Shown here in pieces: positions 5,801 through 59,862 of a stretch of DNA of 64,000 nt (position 1 is its first letter; the number at the start of each line of letters is the position of its first letter). Both the position numbers and the translations under genes were made by a program. The DNA is from Escherichia virus TH47. The notes below the pieces were generated by a model. That model made no database searches and was not told the origin of the DNA. It saw only the letters and a program-made list of their open reading frames with translations. The stretch lies in sequence record MT446416.1. One strand, 5' to 3'.

Positions 5801-6562
5801 GGTTTTAAACTACAGAATTGATTGAATTGAATTTTGAAAGGAATTAATTATTTTATAGTGAACTCATCTAACTCATTTCATTCGTTAGCTGAAGAATATT
5901 CGTTACTACGTAACTCATATTCATTTCTTATAATTAATTATAAAGAACTTTAAAAGATTTAATACTTGACGGGATTTGTTGAAGACATTTTCATCCCCCC
6001 GCAGGGGAATGAAGACAATAAAAAAGAGACAATTAAGTCTCTTAATTCTTGACGCTGATGGTTTCAGCATTTATTGTATTGCGAATTTCTTAAAATTCAT
6101 TAAGAACGAAAGCGGGTTGCTCTGTTTCTCTCTATCGCAGTCATGTGCAACGGTCGTCAGTCTTAATCATCCTGACACTCACCTGAAAGTCTATACAATC
6201 AAACTTCAGGCTGTTTATTAAATCACTTAATAAACTCCCTTAGCAAATCTGGTAAGGTGCGATCCTTATACATCTATCGAGGAACTCTCTGTATGCTTAT
6301 CGGAGTTCTTTATTGAGCCGTGTCGCCGTGAGGGGTTCAAACTATGCCCACATCTAACGGGTTTCTTCTGCTCATCGCACTGTTGAACTGCTCATCTGCC
6401 ATCTACATTTTCGATAGGATCAGGTTCTAATTTATATGCATTTCTGCATTCAACAGGATTGTCATCACTACAATTAACATTATAGCACCAAATTCAAAAG
6501 TGTCTCACTATTATGGTAAAAAATTTATAAAAAGTACATAATTCTTGTTATCTGAAGTAACG

Positions 6563-6570
6563 CATAAATA
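6563..6570 (+). promoter_or_regulatory. Candidate late-type promoter -10 box (cATAAATA) for gene 6601
   Basis: CATAAATA 30 nt upstream of ATG 6601. Confidence 0.3.
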
Positions 6571-6600
6571 TTTTGATAAGAATTAGTTTAGTGGGGATTT

Positions 6601-19990: not shown

Positions 19991-22900
19991 ATGTCACAAC
20001 AAAAAAGACAATCCAATTTATACGCGGGGGAAGATTGGACCCAGGTATATGAAAGCTTTTACAAAATCAATCTCACGGCATTTGATTACGATACCATTCG
20101 TCAAAGTATGATAGACTATCTCCGAACTACATATCCAGATTCGTTTAACGACTGGATTGAGAACGACCAGTTTATTTTTATTCTAGATACAATATCTATG
20201 CTGGGGCAGAACTTAGCGTTTCGTATGGATCTTAATACACGCGAAAACTTTTTAGATACTGCAACTCGTCGTGCATCCGTACTGAAACTCGCAAAAATGA
20301 TTTCTTACTTTCCACGCCGTTCATATCCAGGTCGTGCAGTTGCTAAATTAACAGAAATAAAAACCAACCAAGACGTTCGTAATAGTTTTAACGAATCACT
20401 TAAGGATAAAATCATTCGTTGGAATGACCCAATGGACACAAACTGGTATGAGAACTTCATTCTAGTTATGAACAGTTCATTTGTCAGTACTAACCAATTT
20501 GGTAATCCGGTTAAACGTATCGATATCAATGGTGTTTCTCGTCATCTATATCGCATGAATACAATTCCAATGTCAGCCCCAAGTCTCCCATTCACTGCTA
20601 CAGTTAATGGTGAATCGATGACATTTGAAGTTGTCAACCCTGATATTACGGCAGTTGGTGTTGAAGAGCGTCACCCCGAACCACAAGAGCAAAAATATAT
20701 AGTTTATCAGAATGATGGTAATGGATTTAGTTCACCAAATACTGGTTTCTTTGTTTATTTTGTTCAAGGGACATTGACATACCAAGATTTCCAATATAAT
20801 ATTCGAGAAGAAAACCGAATTCAAGATATCAATGTTGATAATATCAACGAAACTGATGTTTGGGTTCAGGAAATCAACGAAGATGGTATTGTTCGTACTA
20901 AATGGACCAAAGTTCCATCTATGGAAAGTATCGCATACAATACTGTTAACCGTCAACTAAAAACAATCTTTGCTGTCACAACTCGTGATAAAGACCAGAT
21001 TACTATTAAGTATCCTGATTCTCGTAGTGGTGTTGTTCCTCGTGGGACGTATCGTGTATGGTATCGTGTTAGTAATGGTGAAACATACAACATTAAAACC
21101 TCTGAAATCCAGAACAAAAGTGTAAAATACACCTATAGAACCAAAACACAATCAAGCTACGAATCCAGTACTTTGGATATTCGTTTCACATTGCAATATG
21201 AGTCAGATCGTGCACAAAGTGCAGAAACAATTGAACAAATTAAGGCTCGTGCTCCACAAATGTATTATACTCAAAACCGTTTTGTTAACGGAGAAGACTA
21301 TAACATTGCTCCGTTGAGTTTGGGTAACACAGTTCTTAAATCTAAAGCAATTAACCGTTTATATAGTGGTCAGTCACGATTTATTGATATTAATGACCCA
21401 ACTGGTAAGTATCAAAACACTGATGTGTTTAGTGATGATGGTTCAATGTATCAAGAAAAAACACAATTTAATAAATCATTACAATTACCAACTACCAAAA
21501 CAAATGCTAGTATTGCAATTGATAATATTCAGCCATTGATTGGTGAGAATGCTGTAATACAACGTTATCAAGCATATCCACCGAATACAATTGGTATTGA
21601 AATTCAACAAAAATGGACACCTGAATACAATTCTAATTACGCAACTAATACGTATGGTCGTATTATGGGGGCAACAGGTAACGTATTCGTAAATTATCAA
21701 GTTGGTACGTTGATTAAGTTTTCAAATGCTGGAACTACTGTGTGGGCTAGTATTGTTAGTGTTCTTGATAATGGATATTACGTTCTAAGTACTTCAGTTT
21801 CATCAAATATGCAAGCACAAGAGTACATTTTACAATACAGAACACGTTTTAATAGTGTCGAAGTACAAGCAATCTCTGCAATGCTTGATAAAAAGACAGA
21901 TTTTGTTATTATTCATGATAAAGAAACAACTTCTTGGCTTCCATTAGAAATCAGTACTGATGAAGATACTATTTCTTATAATGGAAATGAAGTTCTTGTT
22001 ATGATTAACATCAAATATACTGCTGAAACATGGGAATTTTATGCGAATGGCGTTGAATATGTGTTCGTTGGTGGTGATAAAGTTCGTTTTTACTTCGTTT
22101 CTTCTAAAAAGATAACTGATATTAGTACTGGTAGTGTTCAGAGTGACAAAATTGAAATTTTATCATCAAATACCACAAGTAATAGTAATGCTGGGTTGAC
22201 AAGTAACATAGATTTCCAAATTTATGACACAATTCAACAAGAAAACGGGTATCTTGATGGTTCTCGTGTGGTTATCACCTCTGAAAACGTTGATAGTAAT
22301 GGAATCCCACTAGAACCTAATCAATTCAGAGAAATTGTACCAAATTGGACTGGTGAAGATTCAGTTAAATATGGTGGTATATTGGTTTTCCAAGAAAATG
22401 ATGATTTCACTATATCAGTACTGTCATTACCGAACGATACTTTCACTATTCTTGATTCTTCATGGGCTTATACAATGGAACAGGCACTTGCAGAAACTAA
22501 TGCGTATAAGAGAAGTGAATTTGTTCGCAACAATGCTATTCGCTCAACAACATTGAGTGGTATCTATAGTAAAGGTTCAGGCTTTATGGTTGGCTTTAAA
22601 TACGATGGTAAATATTACTTTATAGAACAAACTGTTGGTAATAATAATGATCGTTTAAACCAATTAATTGAGAACTTGACCTATTCTGATGACACAACTG
22701 CTGCAACTCCTGAACTTGCGTTTTATCGTGCTATTGTTAATATCGGAACTAATGCTGATGCTAACCAAAAGTTAGATTATTATGGTTATAAAGATGTAAC
22801 TTCACAATATACAGTAAAAACGAATGCAAGAACTGGTATTGATTTCCACTGGAAACATTATGCACCAGATGATAATCGCATTGACCCAAGTAGAACAAAC

Positions 22901-23452
22901 TTGATTGACATGTATGTATTAACCAATTCATACAAAACTGAAGTTGATGTATGGTTGAAGAATGGAACACAAGGTAATATGCCTAAGCCTCCAACATCTG
23001 TTGAATTGAAAGACATTTTTAAAGAAGTTGAACAAAAAATAGTCATCAGTGACAGTATTATTTGGCATAGTGCAGAATATCTACCATTATTTGGTGCGAG
23101 TGCTGATGAAGATTATAAAGCAGATTTCAAAGTCGTCAAATTGCCTAACAGTACAATGAGTGATGATGAAATTCGTCAAAATGTCGTAGCACTAACTAAC
23201 GAGTATTTTAATGTTGACAACTGGGATTTTGGTGAAAGTTTCTATTACACAGACTTGTGTACATACATTCACTCCCAATTAGGACGACATATTAGTACTA
23301 TTGTTATCGTAGCTCAAAACCCTAACTCTAAATTTGGCTCACTATTTGAAATCCCTTCACGTTCTGACCAGATTTTCTTAAGTACTGCATCAGTTGATAA
23401 CGTACAGATAGTCAATTCCTTGGCTAAGAGTAACATTAACATTGGTTCATAA
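19991..23452 (+). CDS. Baseplate wedge protein, gp6-like (baseplate J family), enlarged
   Basis: 1153 aa; N-terminal region (FDYDTIRQSMIDYL...LDTISMLGQNLAFRMDLNTRENFLDTATRRASVLKLAKMISYFP) follows gp6/baseplate-J N-terminal pattern; GAGGA RBS located inside the upstream endonuclease gene. Confidence 0.6.
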   Translation: MSQQKRQSNLYAGEDWTQVYESFYKINLTAFDYDTIRQSMIDYLRTTYPDSFNDWIENDQFIFILDTISMLGQNLAFRMDLNTRENFLDTATRRASVLKLAKMISYFPRRSYPGRAVAKLTEIKTNQDVRNSFNESLKDKIIRWNDPMDTNWYENFILVMNSSFVSTNQFGNPVKRIDINGVSRHLYRMNTIPMSAPSLPFTATVNGESMTFEVVNPDITAVGVEERHPEPQEQKYIVYQNDGNGFSSPNTGFFVYFVQGTLTYQDFQYNIREENRIQDINVDNINETDVWVQEINEDGIVRTKWTKVPSMESIAYNTVNRQLKTIFAVTTRDKDQITIKYPDSRSGVVPRGTYRVWYRVSNGETYNIKTSEIQNKSVKYTYRTKTQSSYESSTLDIRFTLQYESDRAQSAETIEQIKARAPQMYYTQNRFVNGEDYNIAPLSLGNTVLKSKAINRLYSGQSRFIDINDPTGKYQNTDVFSDDGSMYQEKTQFNKSLQLPTTKTNASIAIDNIQPLIGENAVIQRYQAYPPNTIGIEIQQKWTPEYNSNYATNTYGRIMGATGNVFVNYQVGTLIKFSNAGTTVWASIVSVLDNGYYVLSTSVSSNMQAQEYILQYRTRFNSVEVQAISAMLDKKTDFVIIHDKETTSWLPLEISTDEDTISYNGNEVLVMINIKYTAETWEFYANGVEYVFVGGDKVRFYFVSSKKITDISTGSVQSDKIEILSSNTTSNSNAGLTSNIDFQIYDTIQQENGYLDGSRVVITSENVDSNGIPLEPNQFREIVPNWTGEDSVKYGGILVFQENDDFTISVLSLPNDTFTILDSSWAYTMEQALAETNAYKRSEFVRNNAIRSTTLSGIYSKGSGFMVGFKYDGKYYFIEQTVGNNNDRLNQLIENLTYSDDTTAATPELAFYRAIVNIGTNADANQKLDYYGYKDVTSQYTVKTNARTGIDFHWKHYAPDDNRIDPSRTNLIDMYVLTNSYKTEVDVWLKNGTQGNMPKPPTSVELKDIFKEVEQKIVISDSIIWHSAEYLPLFGASADEDYKADFKVVKLPNSTMSDDEIRQNVVALTNEYFNVDNWDFGESFYYTDLCTYIHSQLGRHISTIVIVAQNPNSKFGSLFEIPSRSDQIFLSTASVDNVQIVNSLAKSNINIGS

Positions 23453-33501: not shown

Positions 33502-33507
33502 CAAAAA

Positions 33508-33536
33508 GGAGAGCAAATGCTCTCCTTTTCTTTTTT
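33508..33536. terminator. Bidirectional rho-independent terminator between convergent genes
   Basis: GGAGAGC-aaat-GCTCTCC hairpin with A-run upstream and T-run downstream. Confidence 0.65.
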
Positions 33537-35823
33537 ACGCAATAACTTTTTCTACTGCTTTAGTTCGTTTAGGTTTGATTGCCAATTTACCATCAATCAC
33601 ATCAAACGTTACGTTACCACCATTAACCAGAGAACCACACAACATCTCTTTAGCTAGTGGGACACGGATGTTTTGCTCAATAGTGCGTTTCATTGGACGT
33701 GCACCCATTCCAACTTTAACACCATTTGTTGCCAACCACTCACGAGCCGCTTTGGTCAGTGAAACTTTAACTTTGCGGTCTTTGATTTGTTCATTCAAAC
33801 TTCCCATGAACTTATCAATGATGCTGTCAATCGCTTCGCTGCTTAGGTCTTTGAATGTCACAATACTATCGATACGGTTGATGAATTCAGGTGGCAAGAA
33901 TGCTTTAATCGCTTTATCTTGTGCTGTATCACTACCGCTCATCCCAATACTACGCTTGGTTGAATCTGCTGCACCAAGGTTAGTCGTCATAATAACAGTT
34001 ACGTTATTGAAGTAAACAGTTTTACCTTGTGAACCAGTCAAACGTCCTTCGTCCAGAACCTGTAGGAAGGTTAGTAGTACTTTACGATCAGCTTTTTCGA
34101 TTTCATCGAGCAACAGTACTGCATTCGGGAACTGCTCAATCTTGTCGAGTAGCAGACCGTTACCAGAATCGTGACCAACATAGCCTGGAGGTGAACCAAT
34201 CAGTTTAGCAACAGTATGTTCCTGTGAAAACTCGGACATATCGAAACGAATCAGTTCAGAACCAGTTGCATCAGCCAGTGCTTTGGTAATTTCAGTTTTA
34301 CCAGTACCAGATGGCCCAACAAACATGAATGCACCTTGAACACTTGATTTATCACGCAGACCAGCACGAGCTACCATCACGTTATCAACCAGTTTCTGTA
34401 CTGCTTCTTCTTGACCGTATACACGAGAACGGAGTGCATCTGGTAGATTACGCATACGTTCACTTTCAGTGCAAGCAACCACGTTAATATCTAGGTTTGC
34501 GATACCTGCAACAACTTCTTGAATCAGTGCAACAGTGATGATGTTATCATCAGTTTCACGAGAACGTACTTTCGCTGCCGCCGCATCCATTAGGTCGATT
34601 GCTTTGTCAGGGAAGTGTTTGTTCTTCAGGAACTTATCACTTAGTGTAATAACTGCATCCATTGCTTCAGTACTGAACTCTACGTTATGGAAAGTTTCAT
34701 AAGTAGATTTCAAACCATTCACAATCGCACGGGTTTCATCAATTGATGGCTCAACTACATCAATTTTCATGAAACGACGAGTTAGTGCACTATCTTTTTC
34801 GATGTTTTTACGATATTCATCGTAAGTTGTTGCACCGATTACACGAATCTCACCACGAGATAGTGCAGGTTTGAGCATGTTGCTCATATCCATAGAACCG
34901 TTGCTTGCTGAACCAGCACCAACCATAATATGGATTTCATCGATGAACACAATAGTGTTTTCACGTTTCTTCAGTTCTTTTAGTAGGTTATCGATACGTT
35001 CTTCGAACTCACCACGGTACTTAGTACCAGCAGTCAGTGCACCTACGTTCAGAGACAGAATTTCAACATCTTTAAGATGCTCTGGTACTTCACCATCAGC
35101 GATTGCCTGTGCTAGACCATCAATGATTTGAGTTTTACCAACACCAGCTTCACCAGTCAGGATGGCATTCTTCTTAGTCTTACGGGCCAGAGTTTCAATC
35201 AGTGCAGAAAGCTCTTTCTGGCGACCAATCATTGGGTCAAGTTTACCTTCTTTTGCAAGTGCTGTTAGGTTAGTGGTGTAATCTTCTAAACCTTTTTGTT
35301 TGGACGATGGTTGCTGTTGTGCCACTTTTTTCTCCCCAGTTGGCTCATCACTAATGCTTTGAAGGTTGATTCCGTTGTCGATTGCTTCTACGTGCTTCTG
35401 TAGAGTTCGTGCTGCTTCAGTACAAGTGATACCCTCTTCACGCAATGCTGCTTCTAGTGCAGTATTTGGGAAGGACAAACACTCAAACAGTACAAAATAA
35501 GCATCAATTGAGAAATCATCACGTTTAAGTTGCTCAATTACTGATTTCTTAGAAAGTTCCTGAACTACACGGTTCACGAGAAGTGATGTGCGGTTCGCTT
35601 CATCACCATCAGCACTTTTAGGTGCATGTGGGAATGTTGTATTCTTCAGATATGCAATCAAACGACCGTGTAGGTTGTCTGCATCGATGTTCATATCTTC
35701 AAATACTGCTTTGATGCTATCGATTGTCAGTACTGTAGCACTTAGATGGTCAATAGTCAAGAAGGTATGACCCAGAGAAGTTGCCAGTTCGTCGCTTTTT
35801 TTGAATAATTGGGTAAGATTCAT
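33535..35823 (-). CDS. ClpA-like double-AAA+ unfoldase (Clp ATPase family)
   Basis: 762 aa from ATG 35823 (AGGAGA RBS; ORF-track start is GTG); N-domain begins like ClpA; two Walker A motifs GEAGVGKT and GPSGTGKT, Walker B FIDEIH and LLDEIEKA, GARPMKR sensor; no long ClpB M-domain; KRSIGM at the position of the ClpA IGL ClpP-docking loop. Confidence 0.85.
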   Translation of the reverse strand: MNLTQLFKKSDELATSLGHTFLTIDHLSATVLTIDSIKAVFEDMNIDADNLHGRLIAYLKNTTFPHAPKSADGDEANRTSLLVNRVVQELSKKSVIEQLKRDDFSIDAYFVLFECLSFPNTALEAALREEGITCTEAARTLQKHVEAIDNGINLQSISDEPTGEKKVAQQQPSSKQKGLEDYTTNLTALAKEGKLDPMIGRQKELSALIETLARKTKKNAILTGEAGVGKTQIIDGLAQAIADGEVPEHLKDVEILSLNVGALTAGTKYRGEFEERIDNLLKELKKRENTIVFIDEIHIMVGAGSASNGSMDMSNMLKPALSRGEIRVIGATTYDEYRKNIEKDSALTRRFMKIDVVEPSIDETRAIVNGLKSTYETFHNVEFSTEAMDAVITLSDKFLKNKHFPDKAIDLMDAAAAKVRSRETDDNIITVALIQEVVAGIANLDINVVACTESERMRNLPDALRSRVYGQEEAVQKLVDNVMVARAGLRDKSSVQGAFMFVGPSGTGKTEITKALADATGSELIRFDMSEFSQEHTVAKLIGSPPGYVGHDSGNGLLLDKIEQFPNAVLLLDEIEKADRKVLLTFLQVLDEGRLTGSQGKTVYFNNVTVIMTTNLGAADSTKRSIGMSGSDTAQDKAIKAFLPPEFINRIDSIVTFKDLSSEAIDSIIDKFMGSLNEQIKDRKVKVSLTKAAREWLATNGVKVGMGARPMKRTIEQNIRVPLAKEMLCGSLVNGGNVTFDVIDGKLAIKPKRTKAVEKVIA

Positions 35824-35931: not shown

Positions 35932-37428
35932 ATGACATACAGAATGTGGAAAAAAGGTAGAACCAATGATTACAAGTTCATTGACTCTGCCATAGCAGAA
36001 CAATACAACATCGGTGGTGTTGACATGTGGCTTTATGCCTATGTCGGACCAAAACAAGTCGCTGATAACACTGATTTATCATATGGCGGTGATTATTATG
36101 GTTCAGATAGTACCGTTGTGTCAAGCATTGGTGATTTAATTTTTGGTGACACTCCAAGTCGTAACTATAATCTCGAAGCTATCACCTTAAGTTGCGTCTA
36201 CCAAGTCCAAGAAGCAACTCCTGACTTGAAAATCCCAGGATTGTTCTTCAACTTTAACACTATGGACATCACAATTCATTATAACACAATGATTCAGCGT
36301 TTGGGAAGAAAAATTATGCCAGGTGACGTAATCGAACTCCCTAACTTACGTGATTTTGATGTACTTGGTAAAGATTCTGGTTTAAATCGCTTCTATGTAG
36401 TACAAGATGGGTTTAGAACATCAGAAGGTTACTCAGTTACATGGCAACATCACATTTACAAACTCCGTGTTAAACCTCTTACTGATTCACCAGAGTATTC
36501 AGACCTTCTAGGTAACAATAACTACCCTGATGACCCAGATGAACCAAACAACGGCAATGGTAATACTGATGATGGCTCTTCAGAGAACAGCAGCTATGGT
36601 AATGAAATGGACATTATGAACCGTATCATTATGCAAGCTGATGATGAAGTACCATACATTCATTTTACTAACGAACACTTGTTCGATGACAGACCAGATA
36701 CCGTTGATTTGTCTAAGTATATGCTAAATGGATACGAATTACCAGAGGAACCAGCAAATAAAATGTATTTCCTCAAGAAAACTTACCCAGTACTGAAAGA
36801 ACTATCTAATGATACATGGATTTCTGTAGAAGTCAAGCGTGGAACAATCTTTCCTCGCAAACCGATGGATGGTGACTTCTTCTTTAAAGAAAACGAGGCT
36901 GATGTCACTGGCTTCTCATTGTATCAATACGATAAATCTGCCAAAAAGTGGCTAAATTGTGATGTTGAGTATACTACAGAAAGCACACCACCACAAGGGG
37001 TTGATGATTTTTATATTGAATACAAAGAACCACACATTTATCAGTACTTAAATGGTAAATGGGGAGAACCAGAAGTAACTTACGTTAATGACCCATTCAC
37101 TTCTAATAGTGTTTATGGAAATATCGATTCACAACAAGATTATCGTCCTAAGATTCCTCCAGCACGAGGTACAGTTCCTGAAGGTAATATGTTCCCAAGT
37201 GATGCAGTTGATGGTGATTACTACTATCGTACCGATTATACACCAGTAACCCTATGGGAATACAGTGCATCCAAGAATTCTTGGGTGATTTTCGATTACG
37301 GTGGTAGAAAACCGTGGGAAGGTGCAGATCTTGCTCTAACAGAATTTGTTAATAGCCCGAACCGTGTACCATTACATGATGCAGTTAAACCTAATACAGC
37401 GTATCGTATACATAAGGATTCAGAATGA
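35932..37428 (+). CDS. Putative neck/virion protein (gp13/gp14-like position)
   Basis: ORF-track start 35920 is TTG; ATG 35932 with GGAGA RBS; directly upstream of and overlapping gp15-like gene. Confidence 0.35.
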   Translation: MTYRMWKKGRTNDYKFIDSAIAEQYNIGGVDMWLYAYVGPKQVADNTDLSYGGDYYGSDSTVVSSIGDLIFGDTPSRNYNLEAITLSCVYQVQEATPDLKIPGLFFNFNTMDITIHYNTMIQRLGRKIMPGDVIELPNLRDFDVLGKDSGLNRFYVVQDGFRTSEGYSVTWQHHIYKLRVKPLTDSPEYSDLLGNNNYPDDPDEPNNGNGNTDDGSSENSSYGNEMDIMNRIIMQADDEVPYIHFTNEHLFDDRPDTVDLSKYMLNGYELPEEPANKMYFLKKTYPVLKELSNDTWISVEVKRGTIFPRKPMDGDFFFKENEADVTGFSLYQYDKSAKKWLNCDVEYTTESTPPQGVDDFYIEYKEPHIYQYLNGKWGEPEVTYVNDPFTSNSVYGNIDSQQDYRPKIPPARGTVPEGNMFPSDAVDGDYYYRTDYTPVTLWEYSASKNSWVIFDYGGRKPWEGADLALTEFVNSPNRVPLHDAVKPNTAYRIHKDSE

Positions 37429-57835: not shown

Positions 57836-59164
57836 TTAACCAAGAGAGCGTGCTTTACGTACTAGGTCAGAGTACTTCATAACGAAGTCTTTAAACGCTG
57901 GTACATCTTTAATCGTAATCGCTACTTTATGAAGCGTGATGGTACGAATCGCCAGTACTGCCAGTTCTGCTTGAGTTGCAGAGAAGTTATGGTCTAGGAA
58001 GGTGATGAAGTTGTTGCACAGCTTACCCCAATCTTCCACTGGTAGACGTTGTTCTTGCTTCTCATTGTAGAGGTCGATAATTTTGTAAACCAGATTCAGA
58101 GTGATGAAGTAGTTCGCGGAAATATCAAGCGAAGCATCAATCTCTTTAATCTCACCCTGTAGGATGGACATGGTATCTGGTAGTTTAGCTACGTTATCAA
58201 CATACTCGATGTATTCAGTTGCTACGCCTTCACCAACACGACCTGCAATCATCGCACGGAACACTTCTTTATCAATGTTCTTAACTTTCTTCAGATCTTC
58301 GTAGCGTGCTACTGCTTCCCATGAACGTGGAGAAGTACCACCACAGTGAGAAGGATCTTGTGGGCTAAGGGTGTTGAAGTGTTTAGCACCAGTGTTGTTG
58401 ATGAACGCAACAGTTGCTGGGTTCAAACGCTTGCCAATCGCATAATCGTTAATCCAATCTTGATGATAAGGAATCATTTCGATGTGGGTCATACGGTCAC
58501 GCAGTGGTGTAGCTAGAGAGAACGTTACACCGCCATCAGTTTCACGGTTACCTGCTGCGAGAATCAGTGCAGTCTTAGGTAGCTTCATCTCACCAACACA
58601 ACGGTCGAGGATTAGCTGGTAAGACGCTGCCTGTACAATCGGCATTGCAGAGTTGATTTCGTCAAACAGGATAACACCTTTCCAATCATCGGGCAATTTC
58701 AGTACTTTTGGTGCTGCCCACACAACTGCTGTTTCAGCGATGTAATCTTGTGCACTAGCCAGTTCAGATTCAATCAGTTGCTTACCATCCATATCAAGGA
58801 ACACTTTCTCTGGAACTGGAATACCACGAAGGTCACTTGGTTCAATCTGAGACAAACGGAAATCGATAAAGTTAGTGTCTTGGTCGATTAGTTTGGCTTC
58901 AAACGCTGCCAGTTCACGGCGAAGTTGATCGGCATTTTCAGTATCAGCTTCGATTTGTTGTTTCATGAACTCAATTTTTGCCACGTTATCTTTACGCAGT
59001 GGGTAGTTCTCATCAGCGTATTGACGTGCGATAGCAGATTTACCGATACCAGGGCTACCCCAAATCATCAGGCTATCTTGAATCATGTCAGCCAGTGCCA
59101 TTGCTTCTTTAGCTTTCTTAGGAGTCAGTTTTACGTTCAGGATATCGTTGTTTTGAGTAGACAT
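57836..59164 (-). CDS. MoxR-like AAA+ ATPase
   Basis: 442 aa; Walker A GSPGIGKS, Walker B ILFDEIN, AAGNRE sensor, RDR motif; IDFRLSQIEPSDLRG resembles the MoxR post-Walker-A signature; about 45-aa coiled-coil insertion. Confidence 0.85.
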   Translation of the reverse strand: MSTQNNDILNVKLTPKKAKEAMALADMIQDSLMIWGSPGIGKSAIARQYADENYPLRKDNVAKIEFMKQQIEADTENADQLRRELAAFEAKLIDQDTNFIDFRLSQIEPSDLRGIPVPEKVFLDMDGKQLIESELASAQDYIAETAVVWAAPKVLKLPDDWKGVILFDEINSAMPIVQAASYQLILDRCVGEMKLPKTALILAAGNRETDGGVTFSLATPLRDRMTHIEMIPYHQDWINDYAIGKRLNPATVAFINNTGAKHFNTLSPQDPSHCGGTSPRSWEAVARYEDLKKVKNIDKEVFRAMIAGRVGEGVATEYIEYVDNVAKLPDTMSILQGEIKEIDASLDISANYFITLNLVYKIIDLYNEKQEQRLPVEDWGKLCNNFITFLDHNFSATQAELAVLAIRTITLHKVAITIKDVPAFKDFVMKYSDLVRKARSLG

Positions 59165-59335
59165 GTATATTTTCCTTTTGTTGGATAAAATCGTTTAGGT
59201 TTCTATTATAGCCAATCCGTGGGCAAAAGTAAAGGAACTGTGTTAAAAGAATTTTTAACTTATCAGTTCCTTTGTTACTTCATGAATCATCCGTGTATTT
59301 AAAAAGGCATTTCTCTTTGCCGTCTTGATGTGGTC

Positions 59336-59363
59336 ATTATATCACATCGTTCAGGCTTGTCAA
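59336..59363 (-). promoter_or_regulatory. Near-consensus sigma70-type promoter, copy 1 (TTGACA-N16-TGaTATAAT with upstream A-tract)
   Basis: Minus strand reads aaaaaaaagttgTTGACAagcctgaacgatgtgaTATAATgacc; directs transcription toward MoxR gene (start 59164). Confidence 0.5.
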
Positions 59364-59429
59364 CAACTTTTTTTTATTTCTTTTTCAATCTCACATCTTG
59401 TGATTTTGAAAACTTGCTTCGTGGTGGTC

Positions 59430-59457
59430 ATTATATCACATCATTCGGCGTTGTCAA
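59430..59457 (-). promoter_or_regulatory. Near-consensus sigma70-type promoter, copy 2 (tandem duplicate)
   Basis: Minus strand reads aaaaaaaaagatgTTGACAacgccgaatgatgtgaTATAATgacc; about 94 bp upstream of copy 1. Confidence 0.5.
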
Positions 59458-59484
59458 CATCTTTTTTTTTCTTTATTTTCGAAG

Positions 59485-59862
59485 CTACATGTGCATCGAA
59501 ATTAACATTCTAAAATCATCACCACACAATGTTAACTCTGTAACTATCATTGCGTCAGAGAGGTATATGTACTGCCCTTCAACATAGTAGGGTGAAGTAC
59601 ATATCCTATCAAGCGATGTAAAGATTATAGAACTTTTGAACTCTCTTTGCAAGGGGATTTTTGTAAATTCGTAAAGAATGTTTTCTTTACAAATTGTATA
59701 TCCAAACTTGCTAAGTCTTAAACCACCGCCAGTTCTGAAATTTTCAAAAATTGACATCAGAAGCATACGGTCTGTTAATTCAGCGTCTGATCCATGTACT
59801 TCTCTAACTTTTAAAAGTACATCGTTTTGAAATTCAGTACTGTTGTGTGGTTCAGGGATCAT
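59485..59862 (-). CDS. Hypothetical protein
   Basis: 125-aa ORF ending just upstream of the tandem promoters; no motif recognised. Confidence 0.4.
   Translation of the reverse strand: MIPEPHNSTEFQNDVLLKVREVHGSDAELTDRMLLMSIFENFRTGGGLRLSKFGYTICKENILYEFTKIPLQREFKSSIIFTSLDRICTSPYYVEGQYIYLSDAMIVTELTLCGDDFRMLISMHM

Follow-up and report, generated by a model that had tools for sequence, protein, structure and literature searches.

What do three almost identical, consensus-like promoters do in front of two separate AAA+ ATPase genes of a phage, and which polymerase would read them? The 64,000-nucleotide stretch of Escherichia virus TH47 analyzed here (sequence record MT446416.1; hereafter, the window) carries two such sites in tandem, P1 and P2, upstream of a MoxR-like ATPase gene and a third, PclpA, upstream of a ClpA/ClpB-like gene, all on the minus strand. 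An earlier note on this DNA described them as three copies of one element of roughly 45 bp that would provide strong, co-regulated early transcription of both genes by the host RNA polymerase. With somewhat more confidence than doubt, we favor a composite explanation in which the three sites are host-usable members of a promoter class of the phage itself, the bulk product of P1 and P2 is a short RNA that ends at a terminator before MoxR, and PclpA makes a single-gene ClpA mRNA.

In the sequence comparison around the three sites, the window region shares 99% identity with the Escherichia phages WPEC3, Ecwhy_1, and fEgEco12, ∼84% with 121Q and PBECO4 (genus Asteriusvirus), and ∼66% with Klebsiella phage RaK2. 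These identities place the window in an Asteriusvirus-like (Rak2-like) jumbo coliphage, a member of a group of jumbo myoviruses with genomes of 350 to 380 kb. Dependence on the host RNA polymerase has been reported for the relative PA5oct (PMC7318152).

Three consensus promoters before two ATPase genes

The promoter cores and the upstream elements of P1 and P2 are as follows.

59430-59457, minus strand: P1 core, TTGACA at 59457-59452 and TATAAT at 59435-59430, predicted start near 59423
59336-59363, minus strand: P2 core, TTGACA at 59363-59358 and TATAAT at 59341-59336, predicted start near A59329
35862-35889, minus strand: PclpA core, TTGACA at 35889-35884 and TATAAT at 35867-35862, spacer ending in AATGTGA
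59461-59480, minus strand: upstream promoter (UP)-like A-tract of P1, gaaaataaagaaaaaaaaag, beginning 5 nt beyond the stop codon that ends the upstream open reading frame (ORF) at 59485-59862
59368-59386, minus strand: UP-like A-tract of P2, gaaaaagaaataaaaaaaa

All three cores match the sigma-70 consensus at 12 of 12 positions, with a 16-nt spacer that ends in ATGTGA, a TGn motif before the -10 hexamer (TGaTATAAT), and a G right after it, in agreement with what the earlier note had read at these positions. The identical core that it reported is also present: the 13-mer ATGTGATATAATG is common to P1, P2, and PclpA, with three exact matches in the window against 0.00 expected. The pattern TTGACA-N13-TGNTATAAT likewise has three matches (0.15 expected), a number reached in none of 100 shuffles, and relaxed sigma-70 patterns elsewhere in the window occur at chance level only. 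The three sites lie in intergenic, non-coding DNA upstream of genes and share the orientation of those genes. Judged from these features, they are very probably real and strong sigma-70-type promoters, correctly oriented.

The proposal of three copies of one ∼45-bp element does not hold. Beyond the 28-bp core, PclpA agrees with P1 and P2 at only 7 to 10 of 35 upstream and 2 to 4 of 12 downstream positions, which is background, and its upstream DNA is T-rich (tatctttatttaccttg / tatctttatttacc), so that the A-tract claimed for every copy exists at P1 and P2 but not at PclpA. The tandem duplication before MoxR, on the other hand, is clear. P1 and P2 form a 57-nt direct repeat that is 84% identical at a spacing of 94 bp, and the duplicated unit includes the 3′-terminal sequence of the upstream ORF in decayed form (CACATGTAG versus CACAAGATGTGAG), which indicates that the pair derives from an old tandem duplication of ∼94 bp. 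The alignments resolve the three sites into two paralogues (P1 and P2) and one convergent class member (PclpA) rather than three copies.

The number of promoters at the MoxR locus differs among relatives. The P1/P2 duplication is also found in the 121Q group, so that two good promoters precede the terminator there and in the clade of the window, while Munch, CBB, Hallingskeid, and RaK2 have one; RaK2 carries an additional, degenerate second copy. In SP27 (L005, 563-752), an exact 94-bp × 2.0 duplication of the P2 unit brings the number to three. Since its copies are 100% identical, the third one would have arisen very recently or else be an artefact of assembly. The DNA between P1 and P2 also encodes a hairpin:

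59382-59412, minus strand: hairpin between P1 and P2, UUUUCAA..UCACA aga UGUGA..UUGAAAA, -8.0 kcal/mol, z -3.6

The hairpin is also present in 121Q. It was considered as a terminator and rejected, as it is followed by no U-run on either strand. A CRP site was also considered, since TGTGA is present, and was rejected by inspection, the second half-site not being at the required N6 spacing.

A phage promoter class and its orthologues

The motif search that the earlier note had recommended was carried out on the whole WPEC3 genome (∼360 kb), as a 99% relative of the window, and in further relatives. GTGnTAYAAT occurs 46 times on the gene-sense strand of WPEC3 and 7 times on the other strand, and 24 of the 46 sense sites lie 20 to 110 nt before a start codon, compared with 21.5% of random positions (p = 5e-6). 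The sites share an upstream consensus of G-G/A-G-A-C-A, followed by N12, GTGn, and TATAAT, and they precede the genes for a Dda-like helicase, a primase, a PIN-domain nuclease, an RNA ligase, and a gp55-like late sigma factor; TGTGATATAAT is also found before a tRNA-Ser gene, two protease genes, and several hypothetical genes. A class with the consensus TG[G/A]AAC[G/A]-N12-[A/G]TGnTATAAT (Table S6), derived with MEME, is known from phage CBB under the name "divergent RpoD-like" and was seen in GAP32 too (Buttimer et al. 2017, PMC5259590). By motif and layout, the GTGn family of WPEC3 is this class.

P1, P2, and PclpA share with the class its -10 element, [A/G]TGnTATAAT, in the form GTGATATAAT, and its 12-nt spacing, but carry TTGACA instead of a class-type upstream hexamer. 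A perfect TTGACA combined with N12-GTGn-TATAAT exists at these three sites only in the ∼360-kb genome. The TGAACG in the P2 spacer was tried as a counterpart of the CBB box TGAAACG and rejected, because the spacing in Table S6 places that box at -35. TTGACA itself is characteristic of a second family in WPEC3, here termed early, which consists of an A-tract, TTGACA, N9, AGTACTG, and TATAAT, with ACATC near the predicted start. Its 16 unique AGTACTGTATAAT sites are found before tiny genes in the 22.5-kb terminal repeat (1-22,500) and at 55 to 90 kb. P1, P2, and PclpA thus combine the -35 element of the early family with the layout and the -10 element of the GTGn class, and they lack AGTACTG. 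The palindrome AGTACT in the spacer of the early family could itself be an operator; AGTACT also occurs in the stem of the CBB terminator Torf26.

The upstream hexamers at the two loci differ among the relatives:

Window: ClpA, TTGACA; MoxR, TTGACA twice
121Q: ClpA, TAGACA; MoxR, TTGACA twice
EJP2: ClpA, GAGACA; MoxR, GTGACA
Munch: ClpA, GGGACA; MoxR, GGGACA
CBB: ClpA, TGGAACG; MoxR, TGAAACG
RaK2: ClpA, TTGACA; MoxR, TTGACA
Hallingskeid: MoxR, GAGATG

A further 16 IMG/VR loci, found by way of the MoxR protein (L023-L038), have TGAAACG or GGGACA as the hexamer before MoxR, and in all 18 IMG/VR loci MoxR is preceded by GTGnTATAAT or a close variant of it. The -10 element is kept at both loci in most genera examined, the RaK2 ClpA promoter being without GTG, and six genomes have ATGTGATATAAT unchanged at the MoxR locus despite the divergence of the surrounding intergenic DNA. 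PclpA is the positional orthologue of the published ClpA promoter of CBB (Porf_235, TGGAACGACCTAAAAAAATGTGCTATAAT, 145,858-145,886), and the region upstream of CBB MoxR contains a class member that is unlisted in the CBB table (TGAAACG..GTGGTATAAT). The orthologues in other genera show that PclpA evolved in place. The comparison thereby identifies both promoters as ancient members of the phage-specific class, whose hexamer changed to TTGACA, the host consensus, in Asteriusvirus and RaK2 at these two loci only. Since other genera carry class hexamers, the ancestral regulation would be that of the class, which is probably a replication-phase one.

Other members of the class were noted in the course of this comparison. 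A promoter of the form GGGACA-N12-GTGC-TATAAT (12233-12206, minus strand) stands before the gp55-like late sigma factor gene, as does the class promoter Porf_244 in CBB; this arrangement fits a cascade from early through class to late promoters. A third class member, at 56303-56276, lies before the small gene that follows the VWA-like gene and keeps GGGACA in the window. Another promoter, GAGACA-N12-GTGC-TATAAT (6506-6479, minus strand), faces a ∼380-bp ORF-free gap between two plus-strand genes (6222-6600), in which we found no ORF of at least 45 aa, no Rfam match, and no fold that stands out from shuffled sequences (z -0.4); its product may be an antisense or non-coding RNA. Among the proteins of the phage is one with sigma-70 regions 2 and 3, and just downstream of the gene for this sigma-70-like protein is the class promoter GGGACA-N12-GTGATACAAT (WPEC3 ∼72,450-73,050; L009 ∼22,450-23,050). 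A start-codon heuristic recovered no convincing ORF within 400 nt after it, and the ORFs annotated in this stretch are all tiny and lie on mixed strands. Finally, CCCA(A/C)A-N12-GTGTTATAAT at 36278-36307 (minus strand), ∼400 bp upstream of PclpA and inside a divergent structural gene, is kept in Munch, CBB, and EJP2, a conservation that may be due merely to coding.

A conserved leader and terminator before MoxR

The -10 hexamers of P2 and P1 are 171 and 265 nt from the MoxR start codon. The intervening DNA contains four predicted elements.

59225-59329, minus strand: predicted leader or short RNA, ∼104 nt from P2 and ∼198 nt from P1
59225-59273, minus strand: intrinsic terminator, stem AAAGGAACUG/CAGUUCCUUU with an inner stem, then ACUUUU; hairpin at 59273-59231
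59211-59224, minus strand: GGA motif, GCCCACGGAUUGGC, equivalent to the GGA-loop hairpin of relatives
59205-59233, minus strand: P3, a weaker sigma-70-like promoter, TTTACT-N17-TATAAT, 10 of 12 consensus positions, overlapping the terminator tail

P1 and P2 are indeed upstream of the MoxR-VWA genes and in the right orientation, as the earlier note had it, but a conserved intrinsic terminator stands between them and MoxR. Its hairpin has a folding energy of -15.4 kcal/mol (z -5.1), carries a terminator annotation in the G17 record, and is listed for CBB as Torf215 with -10.9 kcal/mol (PMC5259590). In every relative examined, across several genera, the MoxR promoter is followed by an intrinsic terminator (18 of 18 IMG/VR loci, Munch, Hallingskeid, CBB, and EJP2). 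Outside EJP2, the shared order is the upstream stop codon, the class promoter, 35 to 150 nt of RNA, the terminator hairpin, an NGGAU motif, ∼50 nt, the ribosome site, and MoxR, and the hairpin follows the pattern AAAG(C/G)ACUG..CAGU(G/C)CUUU with a U-run. With the conserved terminator ∼104 or ∼198 nt downstream of the predicted starts, the product of P1 and P2 is probably a short non-coding RNA.

Covariation supports the two helices of this region. In an alignment of 17 leader sequences, 96.7% of the cells in the terminator helix and 81.5% of those in the helix of the GGA-loop hairpin are paired, each with 3 pairs changed on both sides, and the covariation score of the whole structure was reached in 0 of 500 shuffles, with slid controls 20 to 52% paired. 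RNAalifold returned only the terminator from this alignment; the GGA hairpin was specified by hand and then tested. This hairpin is clear in most relatives and has a stem of only 3 bp in the window (z -0.4), and the upstream GGA is absent in L035 and EJP2. In EJP2 the promoter and the terminator are kept and are followed, in place of the NGGAU motif, by a separate promoter with an UP element and TTGACA, which is homologous to P2 (both have ACATCAAGACG after the -10 hexamer). Such an additional promoter beyond the terminator suggests that transcripts coming from upstream are indeed stopped there. Conservation relative to 121Q is highest in this part of the locus, at 95.4% identity for the terminator and the 3′ half of the leader and 96.7% from the terminator to the start codon, compared with 86 to 88% for the flanking coding DNA, 82% for the P2 region, and 67 to 70% for the P1 region.

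The module from P1/P2 to the terminator has its own promoter and its own terminator and contains no conserved ORF. A leader peptide was rejected, as the small intergenic ORFs are not kept in RaK2, Munch, or CBB; those checked were the 11-codon MIHEVTKELIS, WPEC3 CDS412, and the plus-strand ORFs 59325-59513 and 59330-59587. The leader matched no Rfam family in E-value mode. The predicted short RNA has a conserved 5′ box, UUAAGA, and usually an A(U/C)GGA motif; its body is poorly conserved between genera and shortened in EJP2. P3 is a possible direct promoter for MoxR, and a P3-like -10 box is also found in RaK2 and Hallingskeid and is poor in other genera.

Three further observations concern the fold of this RNA. 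The 5′ box (AAGAGA or AAGAAA) tends to match the terminator tail of the same genome (UCUCUU or UUUCUU), for example in L018 at ∼895-975, so that the two ends of the released RNA might pair; ∼7 of 12 lineages fit. A long-range CGGAUG-UUAUCC pairing in the window fold was dropped, as it is not kept in Munch-type sequences. A mini hairpin of GGCA-N8-UGCC and UUUUU (59301-59321, minus strand), 8 nt into the P2 transcript, is probably not functional, since it is absent from 121Q.

The genes and the terminator that delimit the two transcription units are as follows.

57836-59164, minus strand: MoxR-like AAA+ ATPase gene, 442 aa, weak AAA matches only, ribosome site AAAGGAAAA
56351-57760, minus strand: MoxR partner gene, 469 aa, with a DUF2201 VWA-like domain and a putative metallopeptidase domain
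33535-35823, minus strand: ClpA/ClpB-like two-ring AAA+ gene, 762 aa, with AAA_2 (3e-49), AAA, ClpB_D2-small, and AAA_lid_9
33503-33530, no single strand: bidirectional terminator immediately after the ClpA-like gene

Database records name the MoxR-like gene ATPase, MoxR1, or N4 gp24-like. Structural genes lie directly upstream of it, and it is the first of a same-strand run whose last genes are a DprA-like gene and the thymidylate synthase gene. The ClpA-like gene is a single-gene unit flanked by structural genes of opposite orientation. No tRNA or transfer-messenger RNA gene was found in the window, and the whole window matched no Rfam family at gathering scores.

Readings of the locus and known systems

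From these sequence features, the class membership, the conservation, and the covariation, we infer the form of the polymerase, the timing, and the efficiency of termination as follows. P1, P2, and PclpA are very probably genuine sigma-70-family promoters of the hexamer-N12-GTGn-TATAAT class of the phage, whose upstream hexamer changed to the host TTGACA in this lineage and whose MoxR unit acquired UP-like A-tracts and was duplicated in tandem. The consensus -35 element, with the A-tracts at MoxR, would make them usable at once, from the start of infection, by the unmodified host holoenzyme with sigma-70, and the class-type -10 element would keep them active with the replication-phase class, through a later reader that is possibly the sigma-70-like protein of the phage. 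PclpA would drive a single-gene ClpA/B-like mRNA that ends at the bidirectional terminator. The bulk product of P1 and P2 would probably be a short non-coding RNA of ∼104 or ∼198 nt ending at 59225-59228, and MoxR and the VWA-like gene would be expressed by partial read-through (attenuation), from the weaker P3, or by both.

Several points weigh against this composite explanation. The U-tract of the terminator is interrupted (UUUACUUUU), so that termination is possibly weak and the leader might be no more than a long 5′ untranslated region. The CBB authors assign the hairpin Torf215 to the upstream gene (PMC5259590), and it may mainly end the transcripts of the upstream structural genes. P1 may contribute little: its region is less similar to 121Q than the P2 region is (the 67 to 70% and 82% given above), its -10 hexamer is TACAAT in 121Q, and it has GTGT in WPEC3. 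The consensus -35 element and the A-tracts may be irrelevant if the phage modifies the host polymerase early. In the literature, we found no transcriptome for any Asteriusvirus, and the papers on RaK2, phAPEC6, and fEgEco12 contain no promoter analysis.

The rival explanations differ mainly in which of the observed features they take to be decisive. The three sites may be middle-class promoters read by a phage-directed form of the polymerase, for example one with the phage sigma-70-like protein, in which case TTGACA is incidental drift and expression follows the replication-gene class. We hold this to be possible, if on balance not probable. It accords with the geometry and the GTGnTATAAT shared with the helicase, primase, and late sigma promoters, the class-typical orthologues, the listing of the CBB ClpA promoter in the class, and the sigma-70-family gene of the phage itself; however, TTGACA is restricted within the class to these loci and recurs at both of them in two genera, and selection for host-type strength seems to have shaped the A-tracts and the tandem duplication. 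Conversely, plain immediate-early promoters for the host polymerase, driving the MoxR-VWA and ClpA mRNAs directly and jointly with the leader structures irrelevant, would account for the complete consensus with TGn at all three sites, the A-tracts at P1 and P2, TTGACA at both RaK2 loci, and a ClpA leader that is short and has no terminator. This seems unlikely to us, given the conserved and covarying terminator between P1/P2 and MoxR, the absence of TTGACA from the Munch, CBB, EJP2, and Hallingskeid orthologues, and the typical early promoters, which are of the AGTACTG family and cluster in the terminal repeat and at 55 to 90 kb, not here. The co-regulation of the two AAA+ genes put forward in the earlier note stands in part: shared regulation is plausible, as these are the only TTGACA sites with GTGn and RaK2 has TTGACA at both loci, but the core is not private to AAA+ genes.

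The region before MoxR could instead be a stand-alone gene for a small regulatory RNA that is conserved beside MoxR, with MoxR transcribed from P3 or other downstream starts. The promoter, the 35 to 150 nt, and the terminator at all the loci listed above, without a conserved ORF, speak for this, as do the 5′ box and the A(U/C)GGA motif, the separate promoter after the terminator in EJP2, and the 10/12 score of P3. It is made doubtful by the poor conservation of the RNA body between genera and its shortening in EJP2, by the lack of an Rfam family and the poor P3-like -10 box in many genera, and by the target, none having been identified and no target search having been made. An operator at ATGTGATATAATG through which a dedicated regulator would couple the two AAA+ genes, also raised in the earlier note, is very unlikely. 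The 13-mer is identical at all three sites and a partial inverted repeat, GATGTG..CACATC, surrounds the -10 hexamer of P2, but the motif is the extended -10 element of the whole class with its 46 sense sites, which makes the operator reading unnecessary and includes the tRNA, protease, and hypothetical genes noted above; PclpA lacks the inverted repeat and P1 has it only in imperfect form, and the downstream ACATC is common near the predicted starts of many promoters of this phage.

The composite explanation can be extended to a dedicated riboregulatory device of the Rak2-like jumbo phages, made up of a strong promoter, a short RNA as its main product, an intrinsic terminator, a GGA-loop hairpin, and a ribosome site with GGA, in which a GGA-binding protein, such as the host CsrA, would gate the read-through mRNA of the MoxR module. 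We consider this extension conceivable but improbable. If true, it would tie the expression of the MoxR-VWA chaperone pair to host physiology, with the device boosted in Asteriusvirus by tandem host-consensus promoters.

Gene regulation in the Rak2-like jumbo phages, which have 350-kb genomes without their own polymerase, is almost unstudied. For this phage group, earlier work has described both the GTGnTATAAT class and sigma-70-like promoters that have UP elements, and the orthologue of the ClpA promoter is in a published table. The hybrid character of the three promoters, the tandem duplication, and the conserved leader of promoter, terminator, and GGA hairpin before MoxR go beyond the literature searched. 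The observations fit into a three-tier promoter scheme, with host-type early promoters marked by AGTACTG, GTGnTATAAT promoters before replication and late sigma genes, and T4-like late promoters, which were described for CBB (PMC5259590). They also yield a conserved candidate regulatory RNA before the MoxR-VWA pair and, in P1 and P2, compact and probably very strong Escherichia coli promoters, and the tandem copy number, which is 1, 2, or 3 depending on the isolate, offers a natural experiment, if a small one, in promoter dosage. Should the terminator be leaky and the promoters do no more than drive mRNA, the result is one of routine annotation.

The leader before MoxR can be compared with two kinds of known system. 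Its covarying GGA-loop hairpin in relatives, between the terminator and the MoxR ribosome site, is similar to the leaders controlled by CsrA/RsmA. The CsrA consensus from systematic evolution of ligands by exponential enrichment is RUACARGGAUGU (PMC4347634, PMC2896534), and AUACACGGAUGA of the window matches it at 10 of 12 positions. A GGA is also present in the ribosome site AAAGGAAAA, which is GAGGAA in the Munch group and GAAGA or AAGGU in other relatives. The likeness to CsrA/RsmA leaders is one of motifs only, and the GGA hairpin is weak in the window. As in attenuator leaders and short RNAs derived from 5′ untranslated regions, a promoter, a short untranslated RNA, and an intrinsic terminator precede the ribosome site; unlike known attenuators, the MoxR leader yielded no competing antiterminator structure or ligand-binding fold.

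Tandem strong promoters are known from T7 (A1-A2-A3), the early promoters of T5, and the P1-P2 pairs of rrn operons. The MoxR locus resembles these in having two (in SP27 three) host-type promoters of the same orientation ∼94 bp apart. The T7 and T5 promoters drive long early operons from the end of the genome, whereas those here are inside the structural and replication part and are followed by a terminator. E. coli sigma-70 promoters with an extended -10 element and an UP element, such as rrnB P1 (Estrem et al. 1998, cited in PMC5259590), have A-rich DNA at approximately -40 to -60 and an optimal spacer of 17 nt. The three predicted promoters share TTGACA, TATAAT, and TGn with this type, and P1 and P2 are A-rich at about the same distance; they differ in their 16-nt spacer and in the missing A-tract of PclpA.

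The closest counterpart is the "Promoter 1" class of the Rak2-like jumbo phages CBB and GAP32 (PMC5259590), which has the same succession of a hexamer, 12 nt, [A/G]TGn, and TATAAT in the same gene neighborhoods; we found no published analysis of this class for Asteriusvirus. The promoters described here differ from it in having TTGACA rather than TGAAACG or GGGACA, and the two copies before MoxR add A-tracts and a tandem duplication.

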